A stretch of 64,000 nucleotides of DNA from an uncultured Nitrospira sp. (GTDB lineage Bacteria; Nitrospirota; Nitrospiria; Nitrospirales; Nitrospiraceae): NCBI GenBank assembly GCA_964465695.1, contig CAYXKP010000001.1, forward strand, positions 4,714 through 68,713. The letters run 5' to 3'. Both the position numbers and the translations under genes were made by a program. Positions 1,220 to 62,528 of this stretch are shown one piece after another. The notes under the pieces are model-generated. The model was given only the letters and a program-made list of their open reading frames with translations. It was not told the DNA's origin and did no database searches. Numbering within the stretch: position 1 is the stretch's first letter; every line of letters begins with the position of its first letter.

Positions 1220-4200
1220 ATGTCCGCAAGGCCGGGACACGACACCGCTATGTCCATACCGGCCAAGTCCGGCCTCACAAGAGCAAAAGAATACGGCCTG
1301 GCCGTCGTGGTGACGCTGCTGGCGCTGCTCGCCCGCTTTCTCCTGGACCCTTACCTTGGCGACCGCCTTCCGTATGAAACCTTCTTTATCGCCGTCGCCG
1401 TGACGGCGTGGTACGGCGGGCTGGGGGCGTCATTGACCGCCGTGTTGCTGGGGGCGGTCCTATCAAACTGGTTCTTCACGACACCGAGAGAAGCCTTTGG
1501 CTTGATCGATGTGAGTGCGCAGGTCGGCTACGTGGCCTACTTTATGGTCGCGTTGGCATTCGTCAGTGTCGAACAGTCATTGGGACGGGCTCGGCGGCTC
1601 ACGGGAGCCGCGATGCGAGACTTGCAGCGTGAACTCATCGAGCGTCGACGGGCTGAGGACGCCTTACACGAGACCGAGGGACGATACCAGGCGACGTTCG
1701 CCAATGCGGCGGTCGGCATCGCCCATGTCGGCTTAGACGGCCGGTGGCTCCGCGCAAATGACGCGGCCTGCGCCATCGTCGGCTATTCTCCCGGGGAACT
1801 CGTCACCAAGACGTGCGCCGATATCACCCATCCGGACGACATCGGGCCCAGCACGACTAATGCCGGGCGACTGCTCGCCGGAGAAATCGCCACCTATTCG
1901 ATGGAGAAGCGCTATGTCAAGAAAAGCGGCGAGACCATCTGGGTCCATGTCACCGTTTCGCTTCTGCGCGACGGCGACGGAGCACCGCAACATTTCATAG
2001 CCATCATCCAAGACATCGATAAACGTAAGAGTACGGAAGAGGCGCTCAGCCTCCTGTACGATCTTGCCAGCACCGTCAACCGCGCAGACGACCTCGGCCT
2101 CATCTATGACAAGGCGCTCGATGCCATTCTGACTTCGATGCAGGCGGACCGGGCGTCCATTCTCTTGTTCGACGATCAGGGAACGATGCAATTTCAAGCC
2201 TGGAAAGGCCTGTCGGACAACTATCGCCGTGCAGTGGCCGGACATTCGCCGTGGAAGCGGGATGACACGGACGCGACGCCGATCGTCGTGGAGGACGTGG
2301 CCGGTGCCGACATAGACTCGGCGCTGAAGGCGCGGATACTGGAGGAAGGCATCCGGGCATTGGCCTTTGTCCCGCTGATATCCTCCGGTCAGATCATCGG
2401 CAAGTTCATGGTGTACTTCGACCGTCCTTGGAGGGTCGGCGAGGAAGACCTCGGGGTGGCGCAAGGCATCGCCGGCACGCTGACCACCGGCATCCAACGC
2501 AAGCGCAATGAGCAGGCGTTGCGGGAGAGCGCCGAGCGGCTGCGACTCGCGGTAGAATCGGCGGAGATCGGGACGTGGGACCTGAATTGGATCACCGGGG
2601 AAAACCGTTGGGACCGGCGGTGTAAAGCATTGTTCGGTCTCGCGCCCGAGGCGGACGTGCCGTACGAAGCGTTCCTTGCGATGCTCCACCCGGAGGACCG
2701 CGCGAGGGTCTTGGCGACGATACAACGTTCCGTCCATCCTTCGTCCGACGGATCGTACGACGTGGAGTATCGCATCGTGACGGCGGATGGACGGGAGCGA
2801 TGGATCAGAGCCATGGGCCGCGCCTTCTTCGAGGAGCGCCAAGGCGAGCGGCGGCCCGTGCGCTTCATGGGGACGGCCCTCGATGTGACGCAGCGCAAGC
2901 AATCGGAGACGGAGCTGCGGGAGAGTGAACAGCGACTCCAAATGGCGTTACAAGTCGGCGAGGCCGGAACCTGGGACTTGAACCTTCGCACAGGACGTAA
3001 CCTCTGGTCGGACAGCCACTTCCGCCTCGTCGGCCGAGAGCCGACGCCGACGCGCGAAGCGACGTCCGACATGTGGCAAACCGCCATTCTCGACGAGGAC
3101 AGGGACCGAGTCATGGCCGAATGGCGGCGTGCCGAGGCCGCGCGGGATCTGTTCCGTTCGCAACATCGCATCCGCCGTCATGACGACGGCCACGTCATCT
3201 GGGTGAGGGCGTTCGGGCAATTTCACTACGAGCAGGACAGGGCCGTCCGATTCGTCGGCGCAGTTCAGAATATCAACGATCTGAAACAGGCCGAGCAGGC
3301 CCTGCGTGAAAGCGAGGAGCGTTTACGTCTCGCCACCGAGGCGGCGGAAGTCGGTATCTGGGAATGGAACGTGGCCACGAATCACATTCGTTGGGACAGC
3401 CAGATGTTTCGAATCTATGGCATGGCTCCCACCGGCAATGGGATGGTGCCCTACGAGACGTGGAGTGCCGCCGTGCTTCCTGAGGATTTGCCGGAGCAGG
3501 AGCGCCTGTTACAGGAGACGATGACCCGGCGCGGGCGCGGCGTCCGTGTCTTTCGGATCACGCGCGCGAAGGACGGCATGGTTCGCCACATCGAAGCGAT
3601 CGAGGCGGTGCGGACGAACGCCCAAGGACAAGCCGAATGGGTGGTCGGCACCAACCTCGACGTCACGGAGCGGCACCTGGCGGAGCAGACGATCTTGGAA
3701 GCCCAAGGGCGGCTGCAGCAATGGAATGTGGAGCTGGAACAGGCCGTGAATGTGAAAACCGCCGAACTGCTGCACTCGCAGGCCCGTCTGCGCGCGATGG
3801 CGACGGAGTTGAATTTGGCGGAACAACGCGAGCGTAAACGACTCGCCACGGAATTGCACGATCATCTCCAGCAGACCTTGGTGCTCGGCAAGATCACCGT
3901 AGGCCAAGGCAAGCAGTTGACCGCCGCCGTGCCCGCCTGTCTGGACCTGATGATGAAGATGGACGACATCTTTTCGGAGGCGCTCACGTACACGCGAACC
4001 TTGGTGGCGGAACTGAGCCCGCCCGTGTTACGCGAGCACGGGTTGTCGGCGGCGTTGAAATGGCTGGCCGAGTACATGATGAAGTATCACATCGCCGTGA
4101 CGGTGACCGTCCCCGAGAAAGACGATCTCAAACTGCCGGAAGATCAAGCCGTCCTCCTCTTCCAGTCCGTTCGGGAGCTCCTTATCAACTCCTCTAAATA

Positions 4201-4993
4201 TGCGGGGACCGGAGAGGCCCAGGTCATACTCGAGCAAGGCGAGGAGATGGTGCGGATCGAGGTCCGGGATCATGGGGCGGGTTTCGATGTTGAGACAGCC
4301 GCAGCAGCGGGGACATCCAGCGGAGGCATTTCATCCAAGTTCGGACTCTTCAGCATTCAGGAACGCATGACGGCGCTCGGGGGCTCCTTCGATCTCCGAT
4401 CTTCGCCGGGACAGGGCACGACGGCCGCGCTCTGCTTGCCGTTCGCGAACAGTGGAGAGTGGACGGTGAAGTGCGAGGAGCACATACCGCGCGGAGGCGG
4501 TACTGCTCCACCTTCCGGCTATTCGCTGCCCATCGCCCACTCCACGCGCATTCGCGTGCTGTTGGTCGATGATCACATCATGGTCCGGCAGGGCCTTCGG
4601 TCGGTGCTTGACGCCTATGCCGATGTGCAACTGGTCGGCGAAGCCGGCAACGGGGAGGAGGCGATCAGATTGGTGGATCGGCTCCGGCCGGCCGTGGTGG
4701 TGATGGACGTCAACATGCCGATGATGGACGGTATTGAGGCCACGGCGCAGATCAAGATGCGCCATCCGGAGACCGTCGTTATCGGGATCTCGGTCAACGC
4801 CGCGGGGGAGAATCAGGAGGCGATGAAGCGGGCAGGGGCTGCGGAGCTCATGACCAAAGAGGCGGCGGTCGAACAGCTCTATGATGTCATCCAGGCAGCG
4901 TGCAGAAACGATAACGCGCAAGCTCGTCGGTACTTGAATACGAAAACCAACCTGCATCAATATGGTCGCGGTGAATCGCCAAGCGGCGGATGA
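1220..4993 (+). CDS. Hybrid sensor histidine kinase: DUF4118-like membrane domain, PAS, GAF, several PAS, HisKA_3 (ELHDHLQQ), HATPase_c, C-terminal NarL-type REC
   Basis: ORF 1184..4993 (start uncertain; ATG1220 chosen). KdpD-like TM N-terminus, repeated PAS signatures, H-box ELHDHLQQTLV, N/G boxes, then VLLVDDH...VVVMDVNMP...IGISV...LMTKEA receiver. No HTH output domain. Confidence 0.9.
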   Translation: MSARPGHDTAMSIPAKSGLTRAKEYGLAVVVTLLALLARFLLDPYLGDRLPYETFFIAVAVTAWYGGLGASLTAVLLGAVLSNWFFTTPREAFGLIDVSAQVGYVAYFMVALAFVSVEQSLGRARRLTGAAMRDLQRELIERRRAEDALHETEGRYQATFANAAVGIAHVGLDGRWLRANDAACAIVGYSPGELVTKTCADITHPDDIGPSTTNAGRLLAGEIATYSMEKRYVKKSGETIWVHVTVSLLRDGDGAPQHFIAIIQDIDKRKSTEEALSLLYDLASTVNRADDLGLIYDKALDAILTSMQADRASILLFDDQGTMQFQAWKGLSDNYRRAVAGHSPWKRDDTDATPIVVEDVAGADIDSALKARILEEGIRALAFVPLISSGQIIGKFMVYFDRPWRVGEEDLGVAQGIAGTLTTGIQRKRNEQALRESAERLRLAVESAEIGTWDLNWITGENRWDRRCKALFGLAPEADVPYEAFLAMLHPEDRARVLATIQRSVHPSSDGSYDVEYRIVTADGRERWIRAMGRAFFEERQGERRPVRFMGTALDVTQRKQSETELRESEQRLQMALQVGEAGTWDLNLRTGRNLWSDSHFRLVGREPTPTREATSDMWQTAILDEDRDRVMAEWRRAEAARDLFRSQHRIRRHDDGHVIWVRAFGQFHYEQDRAVRFVGAVQNINDLKQAEQALRESEERLRLATEAAEVGIWEWNVATNHIRWDSQMFRIYGMAPTGNGMVPYETWSAAVLPEDLPEQERLLQETMTRRGRGVRVFRITRAKDGMVRHIEAIEAVRTNAQGQAEWVVGTNLDVTERHLAEQTILEAQGRLQQWNVELEQAVNVKTAELLHSQARLRAMATELNLAEQRERKRLATELHDHLQQTLVLGKITVGQGKQLTAAVPACLDLMMKMDDIFSEALTYTRTLVAELSPPVLREHGLSAALKWLAEYMMKYHIAVTVTVPEKDDLKLPEDQAVLLFQSVRELLINSSKYAGTGEAQVILEQGEEMVRIEVRDHGAGFDVETAAAAGTSSGGISSKFGLFSIQERMTALGGSFDLRSSPGQGTTAALCLPFANSGEWTVKCEEHIPRGGGTAPPSGYSLPIAHSTRIRVLLVDDHIMVRQGLRSVLDAYADVQLVGEAGNGEEAIRLVDRLRPAVVVMDVNMPMMDGIEATAQIKMRHPETVVIGISVNAAGENQEAMKRAGAAELMTKEAAVEQLYDVIQAACRNDNAQARRYLNTKTNLHQYGRGESPSGG

Positions 4994-5015
4994 ACGAAAG
5001 GAGAGCAAATCGAGC

Positions 5016-6737
5016 ATGCCGGCAGTGAAAAAACGGAGATCTGGCCATTCCGCCTCAGCCGACGGACTCCCTGGGATCGTGAAATGTCCGACCGGCATCC
5101 GAGGGCTGGACGATATTCTCGGCGGCGGGCTGCCGAAGGGGCGACCGACGCTGGTTGCCGGCGCGGCGGGATGCGGGAAGACCTTGCTGGCGATGGAATT
5201 CATCGTCCGGGGCATCCGCGAGTTCGGCGAGCCCGGCGCCTTTATGGCGTTCGAGGAAGACGAGAAGGAATTGATCCAGAACGTCGCGTCTCTCGGCTTC
5301 GACCTACCGGCGTTGATGCGCCGCAAGCAGTTGGCGATCGACTACGTACGGGTCGAGCGCAGCGAAATACAGGAGACCGGCGAATACGACCTCGAAGGCT
5401 TGTTCGTCCGGCTCAACAGCATGATCGAGCAGGTGGGCGCGAAGCGCGTCGCGCTCGATTCACTGGAAGCGCTGTTCGCGGGACTGCAGAACGAGGCCAT
5501 TTTACGCGCCGAGTTGCGGCGACTCTTCCGATGGCTGAAAGACAAGGGGGTCACCGCCGTCATCACCGGCGAGCAGGGCTCGAATCAATTGACCCGTCAC
5601 GGGCTCGAGGAATACGTGAGCGACTGCGTGCTCTTTCTCGATCATCGGATTCGAAATCAGGTCGGCACGCGGCGGCTCCGGGTGGTGAAGTATCGGGGTT
5701 CGGCGCACGGCACGAACGAATACCCGACCATGATCGACGAACAAGGTCTCGGCGTCCTGCCCATCACGTCCTTGGGATTGGACTATGCGGTGCGGCAAGA
5801 ACGGGTTTCCAGCGGTGTCCCCAGGCTGGATGCGATGCTCGGCGGCGAGGGCTACTACCGCGGCAGCAGCATTCTGGTGAGCGGCTCCGCCGGAACCGGC
5901 AAAACCAGCCTGGCCGCCACGTTCGCCGACGCCGCATGTCGGCGTGGAGAGCGGTGCTTGTATATCGCGTACGAAGAATCGCCCCGGCAGATCGTACGGA
6001 ACATGGCGTCGCTGGGGCTCGACCTCGGCCGATGGGAGCGGAAGGGCCTGCTGGCATTCCGTGCCGCCCGGTCCACGTTGTACGGGTTGGAACAGCACTT
6101 GGTCTCTATCCATAAATCTGTGGAAGAGTTCCAGCCGGCCGTCGTGGTGATCGATCCGATTACGACGATGCGTTCGATCGGAGATGAGGGCGAGATACAA
6201 ATCATGCTGACGCGCGTGGTGGATTTGTTGAAGCGCAAAGGGATCACCGGCTTGTTCACGAGTCTGTCCGAAACGGGGTGGAGTGAACACAGCGACGCCG
6301 GCATTTCCTCGCTGATGGATACATGGATCATCGTGCGCAACGTCGAATCGGGCAACGAGCGGAACCGGTTGCTGTCCGTCCTCAAGAGTCGGGGGATGGC
6401 ACATTCCAATCAACTGCGGGAGTTCGCGTTGACGGATCGAGGGATCCAGCTCACCGACGTGTATGCCGGTCAAGGAGAGGTGTTGACCGGCTCGGCGAGG
6501 ATGATCCAAGAGGCCCGAGACAGGGCCCAAGAGATTGTCGAGCGGGACAAGGCGGCCCAGCGGCGCCGTGAGCTGGAACAGGCGCAACGGCGGCTGCAAG
6601 CTCAAATGAACGACTTGATGGCCCAATTGGAACTGCTGGAGGAGGAGCGTGAGCGTTTGAAGGAAAGAGAGCAAGCACGAACCGACGCGGACGCGACCGA
6701 TCGGGAGCGCATCGCTCGGATGCGCGGCGCCGATTAA
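5016..6737 (+). CDS. kaiC: Circadian clock protein KaiC homologue (double RecA/KaiC domains) with long C-terminal coiled-coil extension
   Basis: [14 protein letters not shown]; Walker A GAAGCGKT (CI) and GSAGTGKT (CII); catalytic EE pairs ([18 protein letters not shown]); ISSLMDTWI at the CII phosphosite position. ATG5016 follows ggag and lies 22 nt after the upstream kinase stop. Confidence 0.92.
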
Positions 6738-6757
6738 ACGAACAAAAAGGAGAAGCT

Positions 6758-7087
6758 ATGCCGACCATCCCCAAAGCCGGCCGTTCCACACGACGACCCA
6801 AGACCGTATCCTCGGAACGATGGAATTTGCGGCTATACGTGGCTGGCCAAACGCCCCGTTCACTCGCCGCCCTCGACAATTTGAAACGAATCTGCGAGGC
6901 CCACATGGCCGACCGTTATGAAATCGAGGTCGTCGACTTGATCCAAAACCCGCGGCTGGCCGCAGGCGATCAGATCGTGGCCATTCCGACGCTCGTCCGC
7001 AAATTGCCGCCGCCGATGAAAAAAATCATCGGCGATTTGGCCAACGAAGAGCGGGTCCTGGTGGGCTTAGACCTCCGCCAAGAATGA
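6758..7087 (+). CDS. kaiB: KaiB homologue, copy 1
   Basis: [12 protein letters not shown]...[11 protein letters not shown]...LVGLDL, the canonical KaiB thioredoxin-like signature. SD aaggag; starts 20 nt after the kaiC stop. Confidence 0.9.
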
Positions 7088-7097
7088 CGGAGCCATC

Positions 7098-7439
7098 ATG
7101 CCGAAAAAACATGCACCGGCCAAGGCGACCGGTGGAAGACGATCCGTCGATACACAGGAACATCGCTATGAATTGCGACTGTACGTCGCGGGCGTGACGC
7201 CGCGTTCGCAAAGGGCGATCAAGAGCGTGACGGAGGTCTGCCGCCGAAACCTGGACGGCCGCTATACATTGCAGGTCATCGACATTTATCAGCAACCCGC
7301 CTTGGCCAAGGGAGAGCAGATCATCGCGGCTCCGACGCTGATCAAACACTTGCCGCCTCCCTTGCGCAAGCTGATCGGCAGCATGGCGGATACCGAGAAG
7401 CTGTTGGTCGGGCTCGATCTTCGGTCAAAGGTGGAATGA
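7098..7439 (+). CDS. kaiB: KaiB homologue, copy 2 (diverged paralogue)
   Basis: LRLYVAGVTPRS...APTLIKHLPPP...LVGLDL. Starts 10 nt after kaiB copy 1. About half the residues match copy 1 by eye. Confidence 0.9.
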   Translation: MPKKHAPAKATGGRRSVDTQEHRYELRLYVAGVTPRSQRAIKSVTEVCRRNLDGRYTLQVIDIYQQPALAKGEQIIAAPTLIKHLPPPLRKLIGSMADTEKLLVGLDLRSKVE

Positions 7440-7448
7440 GGGTGGTCC

Positions 7449-9287
<1,839 letters not shown>

Positions 9288-9356
9288 ATCGGCGCATGAG
9301 GTAGAGCTGAGTCACGCGATGTCTGAGTCCGTCGAGACACCGATGTCCGAAGCCCT

Positions 9357-12300
9357 ATGAAGAAACATGCGCCCGATGAGTCGGCGGGGTTATCCCAAAT
9401 GGATTCGGCAAACGTCTTCTTCGCCGGTCCCGGTGAGATGCGGACACTTATGCGCCAAACCGATTGGGCTGCGACGCCGTTCGGCTCGGTCGCCGACTGG
9501 CCTCAAAGCCTCATCACTGCCGCCGGTATTTGCTTGAACTCACGCTTTCCCATGGTTCTCTGGTGGGGGCCTGAGCAATTGATGCTCTACAACGATGCAT
9601 GGCGCCCTGTGCTGGGCCGGACGAAACACCCGGCCGTTGGAAAGCGGGGGCGGGATGTGTGGCCGGAAATTTGGCACATCATCGGACCGATGTTGCGCAG
9701 TGTGCTGGAGACGGGCCAAGCGACGTGGCAGGACGACCAATTGCTCATGGTTGACCGAAACGGGTATTTGGAAGAAGCGTATTTCACGTACTCCTATAGC
9801 CCCATCCATCTGGCCGACGGCCGTGTCGGGGGTGCCTTTTCAGCAGTCAGTGAAACAACCGCCCGTTTCCTTGGAGAGCGGCGCCTTCGCACGCTTCGAG
9901 ATCTCGGCGCTCAGGCGGCGATGGCGAAAACCGTTGAAGATGCGATCTCCAACGCACTGCGTACCCTCACCGCCAATCAGGCCGATGTGCCCTTTGCGCT
10001 CCTGTATTTGACCTCGCAGGATGAAACCCAAATGATCTGTAGAGGCATGGCCCCGCTTGAGTCTGTCGTGCAGGAGGCCGCACGAACCGTTCCGCTCGTC
10101 ACGAGCGAGACAAATTTCTGGGCGAAGCTGCGCCAAGCCTTCAGAACCGGTGAAACCATCCTGATGGAAGACGCACAGAAGCATGCAGGGCCGCTCCCGA
10201 GCGGGCCGTGGCCGGTGTCCGCAGACCGTGCGGTGGCGATTCCATTGAATACGCCCGGTCACGATCGCTCGGTCGGTGTGTTGCTGGTGGGGATCAATCC
10301 ATGTCGCGCGATGGACGCTGAGTACGAGACGTTCCTCCAATTACTCGGAGGGCATATCGCCACCGCGATCACCAATGCGCGGGCGTACGAGGAGGAGAAG
10401 GAACGCGCCGAAGCGCTGGCCGAACTGGACCGGGCGAAGACCGCCTTCTTCTCGAACGTGAGTCATGAGTTCCGCACGCCGCTCACCTTGATGCTGAGCC
10501 CGGTGGAAGAGCTGCTGGCAAAGAGCCATACCGATCTCCCGCCCGCCGCCAAAAGCCAACTCGAGCTCGTCAACCGAAACGGCTTGCGGCTCTTGCGGCT
10601 CGTCAACAGTCTGTTGGACTTTTCCCGTATCGAGGCCGGACGCATGCGGGCGGCGTATGAAGCGACGGATTTGTCGGCCGTGACCGCCGAGCTCGCCAGC
10701 AATTTCCGGTCCGCCTGCGAAAGGGCCGGTCTGCGACTCGTCGTGGATTGCCCGCCGTTGTCCGAACCGGTGTATGTCGATCGCGACATGTGGGAGAAGA
10801 TCGTGCTCAATCTTGTTTCGAACGCGTTCAAATTCACCTTCGAGGGTGAAATCGAAGTCAGTTTGAGAGAGGAGAGCGGTCGATCTCGCCACGTGATCCT
10901 AACGGTCCGCGATACCGGTGTCGGAATTCCGGCGGACGAGTTGCCGCGGATGTTCGAGCGGTTTCATCGCATCGAGGGCAGTCGCGGGCGCACTCATGAA
11001 GGCACGGGCATCGGTCTGGCCCTCGTGCAGGAACTCGTGAAACTCCACGGCGGCGTCGTGCGCGCAGACAGCACCTACGGCGAGGGAAGCGAATTCACGG
11101 TGACCATACCGCTCGGCACCGCGCATCTCGATCCGGATCGCATCAGCCCAGCATCCAAGCCGGCCTCAGCGGTTATCGGTGCGTCCGCCTTCGTCGAAGA
11201 AGCGTTGCGCTGGTTGCCGCAGAACGGTCTATCAGATCTTTCCGGTCTAGCTCGTCTATCCGATGACCGGACAGACCAAATAGACCAGACAGACCGAATA
11301 GACCAATCCGATTCCCGCACTACCCGTCCCCGCATCTTAGTCGTCGATGACAACGCCGACATGCGGGAATACGTGAGCCGCTTGCTCTCCCGGTCTTATC
11401 AGGTCGAGAGCGTCGTGGACGGGGAAGCCGCGCTGCAACGCATCATGATCCATCCCCCCGATCTGGTGATCGCCGACGTCATGATGCCGCGATTGGACGG
11501 CTTCGGTTTGCTGCGAGCGCTGCGCAGCCGTCCCGAAACGAACACGATTCAAATCATTCTGTTGTCCGCGAGGGCAGGCGAGGAGTCGCGCATCGAAGGC
11601 CTCGAACGGGGTGCGGACGACTACCTGATCAAGCCGTTCAGCGCCAAGGAATTATTGGCCCGCGTGGCCGGGCGCCTTGATCTCGCACGGGTCCGGCGCG
11701 ACGCCGAACAAGCCCGGCTCCGGTTGCAAGACGAATTGCAGCTGATCTTCGACAGCGCACCGGTCATGATCTGGTACAAGGACACGCAGAATCACATTCT
11801 TCGGGTGAACCGGATGGCGGCCGATTCCATCAACCTGCCCAAGGATCAGATCGAAGGCCGCGATACGGCTGAATTGTATCCCGAAGAGGCGGACCGCTAT
11901 TACCAGGACGATCTCATCGTCATGCGGACCGGGAGACCGCGGCTGGGCATCGTTGAACCGTATCGCTTGCCGGGAGGCGAACAACGGTGGGTCCAGACCG
12001 ACAAGGTTCCGATGAAAAACGAGGCCGGCGATGTGGTCGGCATTCTGGTCCTCGCACAAGACATCACCGAACGCAAGCGGGCGGAAGAGGCGCTGACGGC
12101 AAGCGAACGGCGCTTCTCGCTGTTCATGCAGAACCTGCCGGGTCTGGCTTGGTTGAAAGACGCGCAGGGCCGATATTGCTATGTGAATGAAGCAGCCCAA
12201 CGGGTGTTCCGCAGAAGCACGCAGGATCTGTACGGCAAGACCGATAGAGAGGTATTTTCTGCTGAGACGGCCGAACAGTTCATCCGGCATGACCAAGAAG

Positions 12301-13712
12301 CCGTGGCCCGGGCGAGCGGCATCCATACGGTGGAAACCTTGGAACATCCGGACGGCGTCCATTTTTCTCTTGTGGCGAAGTTTCCCATTCATACGGACTG
12401 CGGAGAGACGCCCTTCATCGGAGGCATCGGGATCGATATTACGGATCGCATCCGAATGGAACAGCAATTGAAGGCCAGCCAGGAGCGGTTGCAGGTTTTG
12501 ACCGACAAGCTGGAACAACTCGTGGAAGAGCGGACACACGAACTCGTGCAATCCCGCGACGAACTGCGTGGTCTGGCGACCGAATTGAATCTGACGGAAC
12601 AACGGGAGCGCAGGAAGCTGGCGACCGAATTGCACGATCACCTGCAACAGACGCTGGTGCTTGGAAAATTGAAAATGGGGCAGAGTAAGCGGTTTGCGGC
12701 CGAGATGCCGGCGCTGGCCAAGATCATCGAGGAAACGGACGCCGTCTTATCCGACGCGCTGCAGTATACCAGAACCCTCGTGGCCGAATTGAGCCCGCCG
12801 GTGCTGCGCGATCATGGCCTCGCCGCCGGATTGAAATGGCTCGCCGAGTACATGAAGAAGCACGAGATGTCCGTCGCCGTGACCGTGCCTGACGGGGATG
12901 ACTTGCGGTTGCCGGAAGATCAGGCGGTGTTGCTCTTTCAATGCGTCCGGGAGCTGCTCATCAACTCATCCAAACACGCCGGGACCGGAAACGCGAGAGT
13001 CACCATGGAGCGCGGCGACGGGAACGTCAGAATCGTCGTAGGCGATGACGGAGCGGGCTTCGATCTTGCCGCCGCGGCGATAGCGACGCCCGGAGCTTCC
13101 GGCGGCACAACCGCCTCGAAGTTCGGACTCTTCAGCATCCGCGAGCGCATGCGGGCCCTTGGAGGCTCATTCCACATCGAATCCTCGCCGGGCCGGGGGA
13201 CAACCGCGACCCTGCTCTTGCCGTTGGCAGCCAAGCCATCGGCGGCGAAAGAACCGTGGATAGGGGAGCATGAACGTAGAAGAGGGGCAGCGGTTTCAGG
13301 CAAGTCGCCGCTCTCCACCGTCCATTCATCGTTCATCCGCGTGCTGCTTGTCGACGACCATGCGATGGTGCGGCAGGGATTGCGATCAGTACTGGATGCC
13401 TATGCGGATATGCAGGTCGTCGGAGAGGCCCGCGATGGAATAGAAGCGGTGAAACTCGTGGAGGAACTCCGGCCTCGGGTGGTGGTGATGGACATCAACA
13501 TGCCGAACATGAACGGGATCGAGGCCACGACGCGCATCAAGGCTCGGTGGCCGGAGACCGCCATCATCGGCATCTCCGTGAACAGCGGAGGAGACAACAG
13601 CGCCGCGATGCAGCGAGCCGGAGCGGTCACGCTTTTGACCAAGGAGGCGGCGGTGGAGCAACTCCACGATACCATCACGGAGGCGGTGAAGAAGAGCAAA
13701 ACGGCGGGATGA
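9357..13712 (+). CDS. 1451-aa double hybrid kinase: N-terminal sensor (PAS-like + GAF), HisKA (SHEFRTPL), HATPase_c, REC, PAS, PAS, HisKA_3, HATPase_c, REC
   Basis: Two complete kinase cores and two receivers are readable in one ORF. The first is a classical HisKA core plus a DLVIADVMMPRLDG receiver. The second is the same HisKA_3/REC cassette as the two neighbouring kinases. Confidence 0.9.
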   Translation: MKKHAPDESAGLSQMDSANVFFAGPGEMRTLMRQTDWAATPFGSVADWPQSLITAAGICLNSRFPMVLWWGPEQLMLYNDAWRPVLGRTKHPAVGKRGRDVWPEIWHIIGPMLRSVLETGQATWQDDQLLMVDRNGYLEEAYFTYSYSPIHLADGRVGGAFSAVSETTARFLGERRLRTLRDLGAQAAMAKTVEDAISNALRTLTANQADVPFALLYLTSQDETQMICRGMAPLESVVQEAARTVPLVTSETNFWAKLRQAFRTGETILMEDAQKHAGPLPSGPWPVSADRAVAIPLNTPGHDRSVGVLLVGINPCRAMDAEYETFLQLLGGHIATAITNARAYEEEKERAEALAELDRAKTAFFSNVSHEFRTPLTLMLSPVEELLAKSHTDLPPAAKSQLELVNRNGLRLLRLVNSLLDFSRIEAGRMRAAYEATDLSAVTAELASNFRSACERAGLRLVVDCPPLSEPVYVDRDMWEKIVLNLVSNAFKFTFEGEIEVSLREESGRSRHVILTVRDTGVGIPADELPRMFERFHRIEGSRGRTHEGTGIGLALVQELVKLHGGVVRADSTYGEGSEFTVTIPLGTAHLDPDRISPASKPASAVIGASAFVEEALRWLPQNGLSDLSGLARLSDDRTDQIDQTDRIDQSDSRTTRPRILVVDDNADMREYVSRLLSRSYQVESVVDGEAALQRIMIHPPDLVIADVMMPRLDGFGLLRALRSRPETNTIQIILLSARAGEESRIEGLERGADDYLIKPFSAKELLARVAGRLDLARVRRDAEQARLRLQDELQLIFDSAPVMIWYKDTQNHILRVNRMAADSINLPKDQIEGRDTAELYPEEADRYYQDDLIVMRTGRPRLGIVEPYRLPGGEQRWVQTDKVPMKNEAGDVVGILVLAQDITERKRAEEALTASERRFSLFMQNLPGLAWLKDAQGRYCYVNEAAQRVFRRSTQDLYGKTDREVFSAETAEQFIRHDQEAVARASGIHTVETLEHPDGVHFSLVAKFPIHTDCGETPFIGGIGIDITDRIRMEQQLKASQERLQVLTDKLEQLVEERTHELVQSRDELRGLATELNLTEQRERRKLATELHDHLQQTLVLGKLKMGQSKRFAAEMPALAKIIEETDAVLSDALQYTRTLVAELSPPVLRDHGLAAGLKWLAEYMKKHEMSVAVTVPDGDDLRLPEDQAVLLFQCVRELLINSSKHAGTGNARVTMERGDGNVRIVVGDDGAGFDLAAAAIATPGASGGTTASKFGLFSIRERMRALGGSFHIESSPGRGTTATLLLPLAAKPSAAKEPWIGEHERRRGAAVSGKSPLSTVHSSFIRVLLVDDHAMVRQGLRSVLDAYADMQVVGEARDGIEAVKLVEELRPRVVVMDINMPNMNGIEATTRIKARWPETAIIGISVNSGGDNSAAMQRAGAVTLLTKEAAVEQLHDTITEAVKKSKTAG
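11271..11306 (+). repeat. Two tandem copies of an 18-nt unit (acagaccRaatagaccaR) encoding TDQIDQ/TDRIDQ in the linker before REC1
   Basis: Read directly from the sequence; one mismatch per unit. Confidence 0.8.
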
Positions 13713-19299: not shown

Positions 19300-19940
19300 C
19301 GCTGTTTCTCTCTGTCGCCTCGATCTCAAACGCGCCGACCCAAAGGTAATCCGCAGCCGGATGACGGTTGTGGGAGAGCGGATTGTGTCAGAACTCAATG
19401 GCGAATCGTGCCTTGGCCTGGCGGTCGTTCGGCAGGCAGCTCACCGACCGAGAAGCAATCCGGCAGGCACTGCTACAGTTCGTGGGACGGGCAGGCGAAA
19501 AATTGCGCCGTCAGAATCTCCAGGCCAACCGCCTGACCGTATTTCTGATGACCAGCCCGTTTGCGAAAGACCGACCGTTCTATTCGAATTCAATGACAAG
19601 GGAAGCTGCTGTTCCCGATCGACTACACGCCGGATCTTATAGAGGCAGCCCCCTCAATCCTGGAGAAGATTTACCGGCACGGCCACGGCTACCAGAAATG
19701 CGGCGTCATGCTGACCGATCTGGCTCCGCCTCAAGGGAGGCGCATGATCTATTTGATGACCCGGATCGGCACAGGGAGTCCCGCCTGATGAAGGCACTCG
19801 ACGCCATCAATTCCGGGTATGGAGCTCGCACCATCCATTTCGGCAACCTGGGCGGCCCACAACCGCAGTGGGCCATGCGAGCGGCTTTCCGCAGCCCACG
19901 CTACACCACGCGCTGTGAAGAGATTCCACTGGTGCACTAG
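19300..19940 (+). pseudogene. umuC: 5'-truncated, multiply frameshifted umuC (Y-family DNA polymerase V) remnant
   Basis: UmuC-like segments occur in three different frames: ADPKVIRSRMTVVGERIVSELNGESC; RSFGRQLTD...AGEKLRRQ; DLIEAAPSILEKIYRHGHGYQKCGVMLTDL; LMKALDAINSGYG...WAMRAAFRSPRYTTR. There is no N-terminal catalytic half and no umuD. Confidence 0.75.
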
Positions 19941-20280: not shown

Positions 20281-20661
20281 ATGGAGGATGAACGGGCGTT
20301 GCAGGTCCTGATTGTGGATGACCATATCCCCGTCCGTAAGGGGATTCGGTCGATATTGGAACACCATGCAGATATTCAAATCGTCGGAGAAGCCGGTAAT
20401 GGCATCGAGGCGATGCTCCTGGTGGAACGACTTCGACCTCACATTGTCCTGATGGATATCAACATGCCGCAGATGAACGGTGTGGAGGCAACGGGACAAA
20501 TTAAGTTGCGCTATCCGGAGACCCTCGTCATCGGGCTGTCGGTGAATGCGAGCACGGAGAATCAGCAGACCATGAAGCGAGCCGGTGCCGTACGACTGAT
20601 CCCGAAGGAAGCGGCACCCGAACTGCTGTATGACGCCATTCAGGAAGCCATGAAGGGCTGA
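20281..20661 (+). CDS. Stand-alone NarL-type receiver (REC-only response regulator)
   Basis: VLIVDDHIPVRKG...IVLMDINMPQMNGVEAT...IGLSV...IPKEA. Paralogous to the REC domains of the three hybrid kinases. No output domain. Confidence 0.85.
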   Translation: MEDERALQVLIVDDHIPVRKGIRSILEHHADIQIVGEAGNGIEAMLLVERLRPHIVLMDINMPQMNGVEATGQIKLRYPETLVIGLSVNASTENQQTMKRAGAVRLIPKEAAPELLYDAIQEAMKG

Positions 20662-23949: not shown

Positions 23950-24417
23950 CTAGGGTTTTGGCTTCTCCTTATAGGTATCGTGCTCCGCCGGCTTCTTCGC
24001 CAGGTTGTCGCCGGCGACTCGTGTGACGGAGATCTCTCGGGGGCTTCCCTCACCTTCGCGCTTGATCTGCAGCTTTACTGCGCTCCCGGCTTCTCCACGA
24101 ACCATCTTCACAACCTGTTCGTAAGTCTTTCCCGAGACCGCCGAACCATCGACGCTGATCAACTCGTCTCCGTGCCGAAGCCCGGCCTTATGAGCCGGTC
24201 CTTCACGATACACTCTTCCGACGTACAGTGACGCCGGATCTCCGACGCGCTCTGCCCCGATATGAAGGGAAATACCGATCACCCCGTCCGGCCCCGTGGT
24301 TCCGTCCACGCCTGTAGGATTCTGTCCGGGTTGATCAGCAGCGTGGACCGGACCGCTCAGCAGAAGACCCAACATCATCGTGATCATCGCGCCCATCATC
24401 GCCATTGTGTTCCGCAT
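23950..24417 (-). CDS. Secreted PDZ-domain protein
   Basis: Signal peptide at the internal start MRNTMAMMG (SD ggagg). PDZ signature GISL...VYREGPAHKAGLRHGDELISVDG. Confidence 0.7.
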   Translation of the reverse strand: MRNTMAMMGAMITMMLGLLLSGPVHAADQPGQNPTGVDGTTGPDGVIGISLHIGAERVGDPASLYVGRVYREGPAHKAGLRHGDELISVDGSAVSGKTYEQVVKMVRGEAGSAVKLQIKREGEGSPREISVTRVAGDNLAKKPAEHDTYKEKPKP

Positions 24418-24910
24418 AAAATGCCTCCAAATGAAACAATAAGTTATGAAAACCGGCTGGCTAATCGTTCGCATTATCTGGTCTTGGTCCCGTCACGTCT
24501 ACTGGCGGGAATCCTAGTATACTTATTCATTTCCCCGGATCGATTATGATTATGTGGCCATCTGTATCGATTTAGATAAGCTGTATCCCCACCGATACGC
24601 TAGTACATTAGCTTCGGTGTCTCACAAAGCTGGGTCAAAGACTAAATGTCTAAATAAGTTACCTTTATGATCGATCAGACCGATGATGCATCAAAGGTAT
24701 ATCTATTGCACATGCCATATGTTGTTCGAAGCAAGGTCGTCCTTTTATCGCATTCCGTCCGGTCCAACGACAGGTGGAATTACGAAAAGAGCGGATAGGC
24801 TGTCCATGTTCCCGGGAACGTTCCGTATCGAGACCTAGGACATTAACTAGTTCATCAGGAGTCCTCTTTTTTCTAGGCTCTAACTGCCAAAAAACAAAGG
24901 AGGGACATCC

Positions 24911-25144
24911 ATGGACACAACAACGCTCAGTAATCGGGTCAAAACCACATTGGAGCAAGTTGGTACGGATTGTCCGCTGGAAGCGATGATGGATCTCTGT
25001 CCTGAATTGACATGGAATCAGATGTTTCTCGCTATCGATGACTTGAGCAGAAGGGGGGAAGTCCTGCTGACGATGGAATCCGACAGGACTTACCGGGTGC
25101 AGATGCGTCGTGTGGAGGCGAACTCGAGTTCGTCCGTTCTCTAG
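24911..25144 (+). CDS. 77-aa hypothetical protein (possibly winged-helix-like)
   Basis: Good SD (aaaggaggga). Lies 46 nt upstream of and co-oriented with a REC-only gene. I recognise no family. Confidence 0.5.
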   Translation: MDTTTLSNRVKTTLEQVGTDCPLEAMMDLCPELTWNQMFLAIDDLSRRGEVLLTMESDRTYRVQMRRVEANSSSSVL

Positions 25145-25190
25145 CGAGAACCGAGAGAGTTTCAGAACTTGAAACCGAACAGGAGTGCGT

Positions 25191-25628
25191 ATGTCGATCT
25201 GTATGGTTTCTCACGCTCAGAATTCCCAACACGACCGACAGGAGACGAAGTGCATTCGTGTGCTGCTGGTGGACGACCACTTCCTCGTCCGGCAAGGGTT
25301 ACGTAAGTATCTCAGCCATCATATCGACATTGAATTGGTGGGTGAGGCAACGGACGGGGAGGAAGCGGTGAAACTGACCGACCTGCTGAAGCCCGACGTC
25401 GTGGTCATGGACATCAACATGCCGAAAATGAACGGCATCGAAGCGACAGGCTCCATCATGCGAAAACATCCGCATCTGCCTATCATTGGTCTTTCGTTTT
25501 ACGCCGGAAACGGCAATGGAGAGGCCTTATTGAATGCCGGTGCCTGCCTGTTGCTCGAAAAGGACACGGCATTTCAACACTTGCCTCAAGCGATTTATCA
25601 GGCGGTCGACAAGCGCAGCGACGCGTGA
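25191..25628 (+). CDS. Stand-alone NarL-type receiver (REC-only response regulator), second orphan copy
   Basis: VLLVDDHFLVRQGLR...VVVMDINMPKMNGIEAT...IGLSF...LEKD. SD aggag lies 5 nt upstream of ATG25191. Confidence 0.85.
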   Translation: MSICMVSHAQNSQHDRQETKCIRVLLVDDHFLVRQGLRKYLSHHIDIELVGEATDGEEAVKLTDLLKPDVVVMDINMPKMNGIEATGSIMRKHPHLPIIGLSFYAGNGNGEALLNAGACLLLEKDTAFQHLPQAIYQAVDKRSDA

Positions 25629-25673
25629 TCCGATATCCATCGGTGATTGCGCACACTCTCGTGGATATGGCGA

Positions 25674-25691
25674 GGGCGGCGCGCGCCGCCC
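25674..25691. terminator. Perfect 18-nt GC palindrome gggcggcgcgcgccgccc downstream of the REC gene
   Basis: Read directly. No U-tract follows, so its function (terminator or protein site) is uncertain. Confidence 0.3.
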
Positions 25692-26070
25692 GCCTCTGAT
25701 CCACAAAGCTTTCCATATCCCACTCTGTCATGTCGCATTGCGCGACATTGGTGATTTCCTTCTGTCGCAAATATCCTCAGCACTGGATTCTACACTGTCT
25801 AGATCATCACGCCTGTGGATTCTGAATGAAAAACTAGAAAGTCACAAAACCCTCCGATTTACGCCTTCGGCGCGCTTAAGGGGGGCGGATATGCTTCTGA
25901 AACTATTCCATTTATCCGTTCGGTGAGCCATCGAACCAGATGACGGCGTTCTGAAACGACTTCTAGTCAGAGGCTTCTTCTTTGCAGTTCAGGCCCTCGG
26001 GATATGACTCTTGATGTGATAGTAGATGCCTGGGCCATGATGGCACCGGCCACGACGGAACCCCAGAGGA

Positions 26071-31573: not shown

Positions 31574-32075
31574 GAATTATTATTGTCCTGTTCGCTAATG
31601 TAGTGGCATGGTCCCCGCTCTCATCGTCGATGACGGCTCACCTCAAGAATTCTACTAGGGCGCGCGGCCCAGACCTCTCTCACTCAAAACGGTATGGGAA
31701 GAGTGACCGTGACGATTCACGAGTGATTTGATTCTGTGGCGTTGACATTTCCATATGAATGAAGAGCACTCGGAGTTTCCTGGCTCGCCTCGTGCAGCCT
31801 GACGCAGGGCCGGGCCATATATATCGTGTGCTCCGCGTACTGGCTCGTCTTCGGGCATTTGTCTTGCCTGTAAAAACTCTGTATCGTGTTTGCAGACGCT
31901 CGTAGCGACATGGAGGGATCTAGGGCGCCGGTCCTCCGTTTGCCGGTTGATATATAAATGGCATGGCCCGATTGGATCGGCGATGGCAAGCAATGTGGCA
32001 TTGTGCGCATAGGTCCCCGAATCATGCATCGATCCACTTCTTCATACGAAAGTGTACCTGAGACGCACTGCCGAG

Positions 32076-33314
32076 ATGACCGACAACAGACATCGACTGG
32101 ATCCCAGCCTCTTCATTCTCACGATCAACGGCGGATCGTCCAGTATCAAATTCGCCCTGTTTCGAGATGCGGATTCTCCGACCGCGATTGCACGCGGCAT
32201 GGTCGATCGAATCGGCCTCGCGCACAGCGAAATGCTCGTTACCGATGTGGCCGCGCAACAGTCGATCCGTCGGGCCGTTCACGCGCCGGACCATCGGACC
32301 TGCGTGGGGTTTATCACCGAATGGTTGAGCCGGCAGATCGATAAGAAACGTCTCTGTGCCATCGGGCATCGTGTTGTCCATGGCGGAAAGACCTATAGAA
32401 AGCCCCAGCGAGTGACGACTGAGTTGTTGGCGGAGCTTCATCGACTATGCCCGTATAGCCCCGAGCATCTCCCGGCGGAAATCGCCTTAATCGAATCGTT
32501 CCGTCGGTATGATGAGGCTCTTCCGCAAGTCGCGTGTTTCGATACGGCATTTCACCGGGACATGCCGCGGGTCGCGCAACTACTGCCGATTCCAAGACGA
32601 TACGAAAAGCTGGGTATTCAACGCTATGGGTTTCACGGGTTGTCGTACGCGTTTCTCATGCGAGAATTGCGGAGAATCGGAGGACCGGGCGAGGACGAAG
32701 GCCGCGTCATCCTTGCGCATCTGGGAAACGGCGCCAGCATGGCGGCAGTCAAAAACGGACAGGCCGTCGATACGACTATGGGATTCACTCCCGCCTCCGG
32801 CTTGCCGATGAGCCGGCGATCCGGTGATCTGGATCCAGGGCTCGTTTCCTATCTGGTCCGAACCGAGGGCATGACCGTGGAGCGGTTCCACCGGATGGTC
32901 AATGTCGAATCGGGCTTGTTGGGTCTCTCCGAGACCAGTTCCGACATGCGGGATTTGCTCATGCAAGAGGAGAGTGATCCGCGTGCGGCTGAAGCGATCA
33001 CGTTGTTCTGTTATCAGGCTCGCAAATGGATCGGTGCGCTGGCTGCCGTATTGGGCGGGTTGGATACCTTGGTCTTCAGTGCGGGGATCGGGGAGAATGC
33101 CCCAACCATCCGTGCCCGTATCTGCGCCGGGTTGGAATTTCTCGGCGTCGTCCTCGACGAATCGGCCAATGCAGTCAATGAGCCGCTTATTTCACGTGGC
33201 GACAGTCGAGTCAGGATACGCGTCATTCGCACTGATGAAGAGCGCGAGATTGCCGAGTCCGTCGCTCAGTTGCTGAGACGACAAACAGGGATCACCGAGG
33301 AATCACCACCATGA
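32076..33314 (+). CDS. ackA: Acetate kinase
   Basis: [23 protein letters not shown], ..HLGNGAS.., SAGIGEN motifs. Confidence 0.9.
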
Positions 33315-36965: not shown

Positions 36966-38774
36966 ATGAATAACAAGGTCTCATTCTCCATCTGGTACAT
37001 CCTCCTCGCGATCATGGCGGTAGTGATGGTGCATGATCTCATTATCGCCCTCAATAAGGTTGAAGAACTCCCCTACAGTGAGTTCAAGAAGCTGGTTGCG
37101 GACGGCAAGGTGGCGGAAGTCGCGGTGACCAGCCAAGTGTTGACCGGGAAATTGAAGCCTGAAGGCGAATCGAAAGAGCAAAAAGCCTTTGCGACAGTGC
37201 GGGTCGAGGATCCGGACCTGGTCCGGGAGCTCAACCAACGTGGAGTGACGTTTGCCGGCGTCATTGAGTCCACCTTTTGGCGGGATCTTCTGTCGTGGAT
37301 CATCCCGGTCGCCCTGTTTGTCGGCATCTGGTTTTTCATCTTTCGTCGATTGGGCCAAGCCCAGGGCGGTTTCATGCAGGTCGGCCAGTCCAAGGCGAAG
37401 ATCTACATGGAGAAAGACGTCAAGGTGACGTTCGCGGATGTGGCCGGAGTAGATGAAGCCAAAGACGAGCTGCGGGAAGTCATCGAGTTCCTGAAGACAC
37501 CGGAAAAATTCACCAAATTGGGCGGAAAGATTCCGAAGGGTATCCTGCTTGTCGGTCCCCCGGGGACCGGTAAGACGCTGCTGGCGCGTGCCGTGGCCGG
37601 CGAAGCCGGAGTGCCGTTTTTCAGCATCAGCGGGTCGGAATTCGTGGAGATGTTTGTGGGGGTCGGCGCGGCGCGGGTTCGTGACCTGTTCGAACAAGCG
37701 AAGGGCAAGGCTCCCTGCATCATTTTCATCGATGAGCTGGACGCTCTCGGGAAGGCCCGAGGTATGGGACCCATGGCGCACGAGGAACGAGAGCAGACTC
37801 TCAACCAGCTGCTGGTCGAGATGGATGGGTTCGATCCTCGAGTCGGGGTCATTCTCATGGCGGCGACCAATCGCCCTGAAATTCTCGATCCCGCGCTGCT
37901 TCGCGCGGGGCGATTCGATCGGCACGTGACGGTGGATCGTCCGGATAAAAAGGGCCGTCTTGACGTGCTTCGGGTCCATGCCAAGAAGGTGGCGTTGAGC
38001 CCGGAGGCCGACCTCGAGCAGATTGCCGCGATGACTCCGGGATTCTCCGGTGCGGATTTGGCCAATGTCATCAACGAAGCGGCGTTGCTGGCGGTACGCC
38101 GAGGCAAAGATCAAGTCGGCCTCTCGGAACTGCAGGAGGCGGTGGAGCGGGTCATTGCCGGGTTGGAAAAGAAAAATCGCGTCCTGAACAAAATGGAAAA
38201 AGAGCGGGTTGCGTTTCACGAAACCGGCCACGCCCTCGTCGCTCTGTCCATACCGGGCTCGGATCAGGTGCAGAAGATCTCCATCATCCCTCGCGGCGTG
38301 GCGGCGCTCGGCTACACGTTGCAGCTACCGACGGAAGACCGGTTTCTGATGACGAAATCGGAATTGGAGAATAAAGTGGCGGTGTTGCTCGGCGGGAGGA
38401 TCGCCGAAGAAACGATTTTTGGGGAGGCTTCCACGGGGGCTCAAAACGATCTCGTCAAGGCGACGGACATCGCCAAAAGCATGGTGAAGGCGTACGGAAT
38501 GAGCGAAAAACTGGGCACCATCACCTTGGAACGCGAGCGACAGCCCCAGTTTCTTCAGCTTCCGGTGGCGTCTGAAAAAGGCGATTATTCGGAAGAGACC
38601 GCGCGTGAAATCGATTGCGAAGTGCGGCGGATCGTCGACGAGCAGTACGGACGAGTGAGGCGATTGCTGGAAGACAGGAAAACCGCGCTGCAACAGGGAG
38701 CACGGCTCTTGTTGGAGCGGGAAGTGATTACCGGCGCCGAGCTCAAGGCCATTCTGGAGGGGCCCCGATCCTAG
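36966..38774 (+). CDS. ftsH: ATP-dependent zinc metalloprotease FtsH
   Basis: Two TM helices, AAA+ Walker [12 protein letters not shown], zinc motif HETGHAL. Confidence 0.95.
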
Positions 38775-39962: not shown

Positions 39963-40061
39963 CAAGATGAATTGGCAACCTGAGGCTCAAGGTCAAGGTC
40001 GAGATAGTCTCCGGAGATCCCTTGACCTTCACTTTAGCCTCACCTTGCACGAGAGTGTACC

Positions 40062-62158: not shown

Positions 62159-62164
62159 GAGCTC

Positions 62165-62509: not shown

Positions 62510-62528
62510 TACCTGTTCATTTTTAACG

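Follow-up and report, generated by a model that had tools for sequence, protein, structure and literature searches.

A KaiA-less KaiC2-type kaiC-kaiB-kaiB block of an uncultured Nitrospira and a candidate reader kinase encoded behind kaiB

A stretch of 64,000 nucleotides (nt) from an uncultured Nitrospira sp. (contig CAYXKP010000001.1), hereafter the window, to whose full length all coordinates refer, carries on its plus strand, at positions 1220-13712, a block of six genes that encode a hybrid histidine kinase (HK1), KaiC, two KaiB proteins (KaiB-a and KaiB-b), a second hybrid kinase (HK2) and a very large third one (HK3). In our assessment the block is probably a KaiA-independent KaiBC module of the KaiC2 type together with one cognate reader kinase, HK2. 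The kaiC-kaiB(a)-kaiB(b)-kinase core is widespread and not special to the window, and chance does not come near to explaining the arrangement, since dozens of unrelated genomes have this core order.

A first-pass annotation, made from the DNA letters alone, had put the block forward as an undescribed system whose readout would be a dedicated relay of all three kinases. Neither part of that proposal was supported: the Kai proteins are of the KaiC2 or R. (Cereibacter) sphaeroides type, for which an operon of kaiC, kaiB and a PAS histidine kinase is on record in Rhodopseudomonas palustris and R. sphaeroides (PMC4794148; PMC3164672), and of the three kinases only HK2 has the conserved module described below, HK1 being deleted in one close relative and HK3 absent from two others. 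Known from before are thus the KaiC2/KaiB family and this type of operon, and the conserved partner appears, from the comparisons below, to be one kinase rather than three. The annotation was right that the wiring of KaiBC-only timers is poorly understood. How KaiBC is connected to the cell outside cyanobacteria is an open question, and the best studied system, that of R. sphaeroides, was reconstituted without an output component. The computational results presented here offer two widely conserved candidates for that wiring, an N-terminal reader module with swappable outputs encoded directly after kaiB and a second clade of KaiB.

The KaiC protein and its type

The best solved relative of the window KaiC is the full-length R. 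sphaeroides protein 8DBA (HMMER, E 5.8e-197, 659 bits, residues 17-572 aligned), against 327 bits (about 1e-96) for KaiC of S. elongatus, and the alignment to 8DBA and 8FWI continues through the C-terminal tail. Identity to KaiC of R. sphaeroides strain KD131 is 55% over 552 amino acids (aa). The protein has two KaiC/RecA-like domains, as a double RecA-domain KaiC should, each with a Walker A motif (G49-T56 and G290-T297) and a catalytic Glu-Glu pair (80-81 and 320-321), and its phosphosite pair is Ser-Ser (GISSLMD, S431/S432, nt 6306-6311); all of these residues are invariant in the alignment of relatives. The general KaiC model of NCBIfam (NF006799, 716 bits against a cut-off of 408) also marks it as a KaiC, whereas the model of the cyanobacterial KaiC1 type (TIGR02655) is missed with 342 bits against 546, and the Ser-Thr pair of that type is not present. 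The KaiC2 subgroup is distinguished by a C-terminal extension of about 50 residues or more and by a Ser-Ser pair (PMC10076222). The window protein has both, with its closest similarity to R. sphaeroides KaiC, and is on these grounds best assigned to the KaiC2 or R. sphaeroides type.

In R. sphaeroides KaiC, the tail forms a coiled-coil bundle that couples two hexamers and holds the A-loop exposed, so that autophosphorylation is constitutive without KaiA, and KaiB of that species (RsKaiB) binds the ADP-bound CI ring, increases ATPase activity and drives dephosphorylation once the ATP/ADP ratio falls (PMC10076222; PMC11372060). By analogy, a coiled-coil dodecamer and KaiA-independent autophosphorylation are predicted for the window KaiC. 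Neither KaiA nor a SasA-type N-domain, CikA or an RpaA-like regulator was found among the window open reading frames (ORFs) scanned with Pfam, a scan that left out a few ORFs below 120 aa; this bears out what had been noted at first pass, and there was likewise no KaiA-family match that would indicate an oscillator dependent on KaiA or KaiA3. The missing KaiA is expected, because KaiC of the KaiC2 type autophosphorylates independently of KaiA.

Distribution of the core

When genomes were scanned with an alignment built from close relatives of the window KaiC, the 80 best loci had KaiC identities of 56-71%; they span Planctomycetota, Acidobacteriota, Verrucomicrobiota, Nitrospirota, Desulfobacterota, Gamma- and Alphaproteobacteria, Bacteroidota, Chloroflexota and others, as well as several Candidatus Methanoperedens archaea. 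The tail is general in this set, a tblastn match extending to at least query residue 560 in 76 of the 80. In this neighbourhood survey kaiC-kaiB-kaiB-kinase recurs in many phyla; the flanking kinases HK1 and HK3, which the first-pass annotation had counted in the same block, are not conserved. Most of the loci belong to non-phototrophs (Nitrospira, Acidobacteriota, Planctomycetota, sulfate reducers) and to Methanoperedens archaea, a distribution that argues for general energy-state sensing and not daylight. Among cultured organisms, a Pararhizobium carries kaiC-kaiB-kaiB-hybrid kinase on a plasmid.

Candidatus Methanoperedens are anaerobic methane-oxidising archaea. Their loci L009, L010, L011, L013, L018, L026 and L028 hold the entire bacterial-type module, with a tailed KaiC, two or three KaiBs and a reader kinase, which suggests that the module was transferred as one unit between domains. 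On a long metagenome contig (L089:4285-6990), kaiB, kaiB and a reader follow two ORFs that have a SASA (sialate O-acetylesterase) domain, with no kaiC called, and the downstream kinase looks fragmented; either the locus is a remnant that has lost kaiC, or the long-read assembly may be rich in errors.

A conserved N-terminal module after kaiB

The gene behind the last kaiB begins, in 64 of the 80 loci, with a region similar to HK2 (about residues 10-200), at 30-57% identity and with E-values down to 1e-64 (BLAST). Orthologues of HK2 lie directly after kaiB in the close relatives L081, L084, L086 and L094; the hybrid kinase of Pararhizobium begins with the same signature as HK2; and the HWE kinase that follows kaiB in R. 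sphaeroides KD131 is 36% identical to HK2 in its N-terminus over 87 aa (E 4e-14), signature included. This signature, ...EAEQTLHAIRTGDVDAILISGPQGERVFTL..., covers residues 15-62 of HK2 (nt 7491-7634) and follows the pattern …EAEETL-AIR-G-VDA-VV…G…V-TL…. A profile of its 48 residues, which correspond to the helix-hairpin part of the module, has HK2 as its sole match in the window (E 4e-23). In a six-frame search of 96 loci (1.43 Mb) it produced 91 matches in 89 of them, 87 of which lie on the same strand as a kaiB and at most 400 nt downstream of it. The other four comprise two internal repeats in reader kinases (L022, L025), one match 533 nt after kaiB (L004) and one on an 870-nt contig without visible neighbours (L096). 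Elsewhere in the 96 loci the profile was silent, despite several other PAS kinases outside the post-kaiB position.

The module reaches well beyond these loci. An exhaustive profile search returned 6,295 representative proteins at E<=1e-30, the match falling nearly always at the protein's own N-terminus; it is this search that shows the size of the family, a word-indexed protein search with HK2(1-215) having found 45 short proteins only. All five informative genomic look-ups of signature proteins placed the gene right after kaiB-kaiB. What follows the module varies: among 55 complete proteins the outputs are HisKA (24), HisKA_3 (24), HWE/HisKA_2 (3) and a sigma54-activator AAA+ domain with HTH_8 (3), and a receiver is present in 19. 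Because the same N-terminal module opens the post-kaiB gene across phyla while the outputs vary, we take HK2 as a candidate cognate reader of the Kai state, which would be a functional analogue, not a homologue, of SasA. A precedent for recognition of this kind comes from Pseudomonas, where KaiC binds a neighbouring kinase via the kinase's N-terminal PAS domain (bioRxiv 10.1101/2022.01.26.477890).

The AlphaFold (AF2) model of HK2(1-215), with a mean pLDDT (predicted local distance difference test) of 89.6, shows a helix, a hairpin, a PAS domain and an exit helix, and Foldseek returned generic PAS matches only, for example FixL and LOV. No KaiB-like N-domain, the mark of SasA, was detected on HK1, HK2 or HK3 with Pfam and NCBIfam. 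No position that is nearly invariant in the module is a His or Cys, and Cys of close relatives is replaced by Ser in the window protein; haem chemistry as in FixL and LOV chemistry were rejected for the HK2 PAS on this basis, and no cofactor can be inferred.

Some members of the family dispense with a kinase. The fusions of the module to a sigma54-activator AAA+/HTH_8 protein lie at L015:4249-6129, L027:2408-4384 and L058:3008-5356; one protein (P0134) joins the module to a LuxR-type helix-turn-helix (HTH) domain, and another relative consists of the module alone. Judged from their domains, the sigma54 and LuxR fusions are one-component versions, which would tie the Kai state directly to transcription. 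A further sequence, P0156, reads as KaiB plus PAS and could pass for a Rosetta-stone fusion; it was left unused, since it crosses an apparent intergenic spacer and is more likely a read-through or gene-calling artefact.

Two clades of KaiB

Both window KaiBs carry the KaiB domain (PF07689, 88 bits against a cut-off of 27). KaiB-a has its best PDB match in RsKaiB (8FWJ_M, 110.7 bits), to which it is 64% identical, while KaiB-b is 46% identical to KaiB-a and about equidistant from RsKaiB and the cyanobacterial KaiBs. Two kaiB genes are the majority form: downstream of kaiC there is one kaiB in 23 loci, two in 52, three in 3 and four in 1 (n=79), which makes two or more in 56 of 79. In a neighbour-joining tree the KaiBs divide into two clades. 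The a-clade unites the first kaiB of each array with KaiB-a and R. sphaeroides KaiB, and the additional copies in longer arrays are also of the a-type; the b-clade unites KaiB-b with the last kaiB before the kinase gene. The clades are told apart, in T. elongatus numbering, by Trp/Tyr at position 8, Ile/Leu at 42, Leu/Ile at 47, Asp/Glu at 57, Arg/Lys at 67 and Lys/Arg at 75, and Tyr at position 48 is found in 94% of b-clade members. Gly89 and Asp91 are retained in both clades, which is only permissive for the predicted fold switching and CI-ring binding. Evolution is faster in the b-clade, whose mean distance is 0.68, than in the a-clade, where it is 0.40. From these relationships KaiB-a is regarded as the orthologue of R. 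sphaeroides KaiB, and KaiB-b as a putative second KaiB, anciently retained and with a distinct role. No description of the two-KaiB form or of a second KaiB clade was found in the literature searched.

In a mirror-tree comparison over 49 loci, distances of the reader module correlate with those of KaiC (r 0.65), KaiB-a (0.19) and KaiB-b (0.33), and those of the two KaiBs co-vary with each other (0.43). With KaiC controlled, the partial correlations with the module are 0.02 for KaiB-a and 0.08 for KaiB-b, so that KaiB-b as a dedicated adaptor of the reader is unsupported; the correlation with KaiC is compatible with direct reading of KaiC by the module.

KaiB-b, and not KaiB-a, has weak matches to the KaiB-like N-domain of SasA (NF006800, E 1e-7; 6X61_B, E 0.013; 1T4Y, E 0.064), which hint that the b-clade leans to the thioredoxin-like form and are too weak to serve as evidence. 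Two loci of the KaiC2 type from cyanobacterial metagenome-assembled genomes (MAGs; L053, L071) have a single KaiB, of the b-clade, with no reader kinase after it, unlike nearly all non-cyanobacterial loci.

HK1, HK3 and the shared kinase cassette

As the first-pass annotation had it, all three kinases end in the same PAS/HisKA_3/HATPase/NarL-type receiver (REC) cassette without a DNA-binding domain. These cassettes are paralogous: HK1 and HK2 share 65% aa identity over 438 aa (74.6% at the DNA level), and the cassette of HK3 shares about 51% with each of them across about 550 aa. Identity among the three is 64-74% in the DHp and 69-81% in the REC domains; the RECs are closest to NarL-family receivers, retain the acidic pocket, phospho-Asp, Ser and Lys, and have no HTH after them. 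In HK3, a complete hybrid kinase (N-domain, GAF, HisKA, HATPase and REC; aa 1 to about 790) is fused to an HK2-like PAS-PAS-HisKA_3-HATPase-REC half (about 790-1451), whose identity to HK2 residues 60-598 is 51%. Given the likeness of their DHp and REC domains, the three kinases may plausibly share partner specificity or form heterodimers. The N-terminal 190 residues of HK3 (9357-9930) match no Pfam family at E<0.01 and are 45% identical in a kinase encoded upstream of kaiC in L081; they may constitute an unnamed sensor domain.

The flanking kinases vary between close relatives. L094, a Nitrospira sp. MAG (contig DATIGP010000089.1, assembly GCA_035454625.1) found through a profile match, is 88.9% identical to the window in DNA over 4819-9252, with equal gene lengths (573, 109 and 113 aa). 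Its HK1 is reduced to a 53-aa ORF (L094:2191-2352) in which the first 22 codons are joined, exactly and in frame, to the last 31, about 3.5 kb having been cleanly deleted with no obvious direct repeat at the junction; HK1 was therefore ancestrally present and is dispensable there. The contig stops within the HK2 orthologue, the position of HK3 lying beyond it. Among relatives such as L081, L084 and L086 (70-77% KaiC identity), the order kaiC-kaiB-kaiB-(PAS-HisKA_3-HATPase-REC) is retained and the flanks differ. L084 and L086 have a 296-aa protein of unknown kind upstream of kaiC and no upstream kinase; downstream of the HK2 orthologue, both L086 and L081 have unrelated genes and no HK3. Directly upstream of kaiC, L081 encodes a 1210-aa HisKA hybrid kinase, an orthologue of the first half of HK3 (45-54% identity), and a few kb downstream a single REC with DNA similarity to that of HK3; in L087, DUF4118 sensors stand on both flanks of the Kai genes. 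A same-strand kinase upstream of kaiC is found in only about a dozen of the 80 loci.

Accessory sensor kinases thus recur near the module in related lineages, with changing positions, and HK1 and HK3 are lineage-specific accessory kinases that carry copies of the HK2 transmitter/receiver cassette. That such kinases feed a shared relay is plausible, since the orthologue of an HK3 half lies upstream of kaiC in L081 and the DHp and REC domains are 64-81% identical; to this extent the multi-kinase idea of the first-pass annotation stands, while its dedicated three-kinase readout is not supported. A stand-alone receiver encoded at 20281-20661 is a possible phosphotransfer partner or phosphate sink.

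Proposed mechanism and alternative explanations

By analogy with R. sphaeroides-type KaiC and KaiB, the KaiBC core would act as an hourglass or switch that is reset by the energy state. Nitrospira is a non-phototrophic, chemolithotrophic nitrite oxidiser, and in such a host the core would track energy status, not light. The reader module would read the state of KaiC or of the KaiC-KaiB complex, as the non-homologous SasA does in cyanobacteria, and would switch the output attached to it. Here, the HisKA_3 autokinase would phosphorylate its own NarL-family REC, the stand-alone REC paralogues, or both, and HK1, a membrane sensor, and HK3, a double kinase, would most likely bring other signals into the same receiver pool. 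An extension of this scheme, which we regard as possible but lean against, is that the prevalent KaiA-less KaiC2 timer is a four-part device made of KaiC, KaiB-a, KaiB-b and the helix-hairpin-PAS reader, in which KaiB-b would be a regulator in its own right, acting on the CI ring either together with KaiB-a or in competition with it and gating the reader, and that copying of the cassette to two sensors has produced a branched relay mixing timer state with environmental inputs. If true, such a device could provide a delay, phase-specific output or even self-sustained cycling, which are absent from the two-protein hourglass of R. sphaeroides.

Several points weigh against a KaiBC module with HK2 as its reader. 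Some of the loci on which the signature profile was tested had also supplied proteins for building it, and its sensitivity there (89 of 96 loci) is inflated, although its silence elsewhere in those loci remains informative. Shared phylogeny alone may account for the mirror-tree correlation with KaiC. Under NCBI cut-offs the two KaiBs fall short of the equivalog "circadian clock protein KaiB" (98 and 97 bits against 110 in NF006798, 95 against 145 in TIGR02654), and both would be named "KaiB family protein". Neither an Hpt protein nor a DNA-binding response regulator that would continue the path downstream was found in the window. Finally, the operon kinase of R. sphaeroides was earlier proposed as a redox input and not an output, in literature as it is cited in PMC5520375 and PMC10931921.

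The last point has a general form, in which KaiBC is entrained by HK2, whose PAS domain would sense oxygen, redox state or light. The fold of the domain, similar to that of FixL haem and LOV domains, agrees with this view, and so does the suggestion for R. sphaeroides in the literature cited by those two papers. The nearly invariant positions, however, include no His or Cys such as a FixL-type haem or a LOV adduct would lead one to expect, and Ser takes the place of the relatives' Cys in the window; RsKaiBC is reset directly by the ATP/ADP ratio with no sensor (PMC10076222); and the part that is conserved is the N-terminal module, while some of the C-terminal outputs bind DNA (sigma54 activator with HTH_8, LuxR HTH) and are unable to act on KaiC. 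A constant N-terminal module with interchangeable, partly DNA-binding outputs fits a receiver of the Kai state and poorly fits a sensor feeding KaiC, and we consider a role of HK2 as input sensor quite improbable. It is unlikely, if somewhat less strikingly so, that the Kai proteins are a stress or stationary-phase regulator without timing function, a role reported for Legionella KaiBC and Pseudomonas KaiC, with the kinases as ordinary neighbours. The host is probably a non-phototrophic nitrite oxidiser, related loci come mostly from non-phototrophs and anaerobic archaea, and phosphorylation of Pseudomonas KaiC tracks culture age (bioRxiv 10.1101/2022.01.26.477890), all of which speaks for such a role; yet the question is one of physiology, not mechanism, and is compatible with an ATP/ADP-driven switch, and the conserved position of HK2 contradicts its being an ordinary neighbour.

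That the three hybrid kinases together form one dedicated phosphorelay, an obligatory readout of KaiBC and a new kind of system, seems to us doubtful. It would agree with the single strand and tight spacing of the six genes, with counts of promoter and terminator patterns inside the block that do not exceed chance, with the close similarity of the DHp and REC domains and the two REC paralogues nearby, and with the kinases that stand directly upstream of kaiC in L081 (the HK3-half orthologue) and on both sides of the Kai genes in L087 (the DUF4118 sensors). The comparison with other genomes speaks against it: in L094, the nearest relative, a 53-aa in-frame remnant is all that is left of HK1, an upstream kinase is missing from L084 and L086 and an HK3 from L081 and L086, and only about a dozen of the 80 loci have any same-strand kinase upstream of kaiC; the signature linked to Kai is, moreover, on HK2 only. 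The preferred reading therefore remains a KaiC2-type module with HK2 as its one cognate reader.

Comparison with known systems

With the KaiBC system of R. sphaeroides (8DBA, 8FWI, 8FWJ; PMC10076222), the block shares a tailed Ser-Ser KaiC (55% identity), a KaiB-a orthologue (64%), the lack of KaiA and a post-kaiB gene that opens with the helix-hairpin-PAS signature. That species has a single KaiB and an HWE/HisKA_2 kinase without REC, whereas the window has in addition a b-clade KaiB, a HisKA_3 hybrid kinase and two accessory kinases; and it is a phototroph, in contrast to the probably chemolithotrophic host of the window. Set against the purple-bacterial kaiC-kaiB-PAS/HK operon in general, the gene order on one strand and the homology of the kinase N-terminus are found in the window, but not the single KaiB and HWE transmitter, in whose place there are two KaiBs and HisKA_3 with REC. 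The proto-circadian system of R. palustris, likewise a KaiA-less timer, has the same order of kaiC, kaiB and a PAS histidine kinase, predicted to form a single transcript, and exerts its fitness effect under day/night cycles (PMC4794148); it differs in its single KaiB, and the likeness of its kinase to HK2 is one of gene order and of being a PAS kinase.

In the cyanobacterial KaiABC/SasA/CikA/RpaA system, which also uses KaiB-family proteins, a histidine kinase that docks on KaiC or KaiB reads the phosphorylation state of KaiC. Among the ORFs scanned, the window has no KaiA, no KaiB-like kinase N-domain, no CikA and no OmpR-type RpaA, its KaiC fails TIGR02655, and its reader domain is PAS-based and not homologous to that of SasA. 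The KaiC-like modules of Pseudomonas resemble the block in that KaiC is encoded beside a (hybrid) kinase and receiver-only regulators (bioRxiv 10.1101/2022.01.26.477890); they lack KaiB, their KaiC proteins fall into other groups, and the likeness of their PAS domain to the HK2 module is one of position. A NarL-type receiver also occurs in the non-canonical KaiA3-KaiB3-KaiC3 system of Synechocystis (PMC11372060). There, KaiA3 joins a receiver to a KaiA-like C-terminal domain and the KaiC is KaiC3, whereas the window KaiC is of the KaiC2 type and its NarL-type receivers are kinase tails or stand-alone domains of 126-147 aa, with no room for a KaiA-like part; a KaiA3-like protein in the window was rejected for this reason.

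Layout of the block

The six genes are separated by gaps of 22, 20, 10, 9 and 69 nt, exactly as first described, and annotation with profile hidden Markov models confirmed all domain assignments (Table 1). For HK1, the longest ORF begins at 1184, and the ATG at 1220 is backed by the HK1 remnant of L094. Pattern scans for promoters and terminators inside the block gave counts no higher than the shuffled expectation, and internal signals of either kind were rejected accordingly; no RNA family of Rfam was found across the window.

Table 1. Genes and regions of the Kai block and the stand-alone receivers of the window
Feature	Position	Strand	Basis and description
HK1	1220-4993	+	Pfam: DUF4118, PAS, GAF, PAS_3 repeats, HisKA_3, HATPase_c, REC; membrane-anchored hybrid sensor kinase
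KaiC	5016-6737	+	573 aa; PF06745 x2 (E 1.8e-111); AGGAG upstream; L094 orthologue of equal length
KaiC C-terminal tail	6483-6737	+	about aa 490-573; aligns with coiled-coil extension of R. sphaeroides KaiC
KaiB-a	6758-7087	+	PF07689, about 1e-25
KaiB-b	7098-7439	+	PF07689, about 1e-25
HK2	7449-9287	+	Pfam: PAS, HisKA_3 (H246), HATPase_c, REC (NarL-family)
HK2 reader module	7449-8093	+	aa 1-215: helix 3-41, beta-hairpin 46-59, PAS 60-170, helix 172-214
HK3	9357-13712	+	Pfam: GAF, HisKA, HATPase_c, REC, PAS, PAS, HisKA_3, HATPase_c, REC
Stand-alone receiver	20281-20661	+	Pfam; paralogue of cassette REC, 61-65% identical (BLAST, alignment); NarL-family similarity
Second stand-alone receiver	25185-25628	+	Pfam, BLAST; about 54% identical to cassette RECs; link to Kai block uncertain

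Other features of the window

On the minus strand, positions 43704-52934 encode a non-ribosomal peptide synthetase of 3,076 aa with three adenylation, two condensation and three carrier domains and a terminal thioesterase. A 190-aa ORF at 19368-19940 has only the C-terminal parts (IMS_C, DUF4113) of a Y-family, UmuC-type polymerase and is probably a truncated remnant. Acetate kinase is followed, with overlapping stop and start, by phosphoketolase (XFP) at 32052-35695, a pair that is unexpected beside respiratory cytochrome c genes in what is presumed to be a nitrite oxidiser. Downstream of ftsH (36966-38774) lies an Mla/Mce-like lipid transport cluster (38853-42725) consisting of an MlaE permease with an N-terminal STAS domain, an ABC ATPase, an MlaD protein and an auxiliary lipoprotein. 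The GC fraction is about 0.52 at 24001-26000 and 62001-64000, against 0.56-0.62 elsewhere in the window, and the second stand-alone receiver lies in the first of these dips, together with small ORFs that have no annotation.

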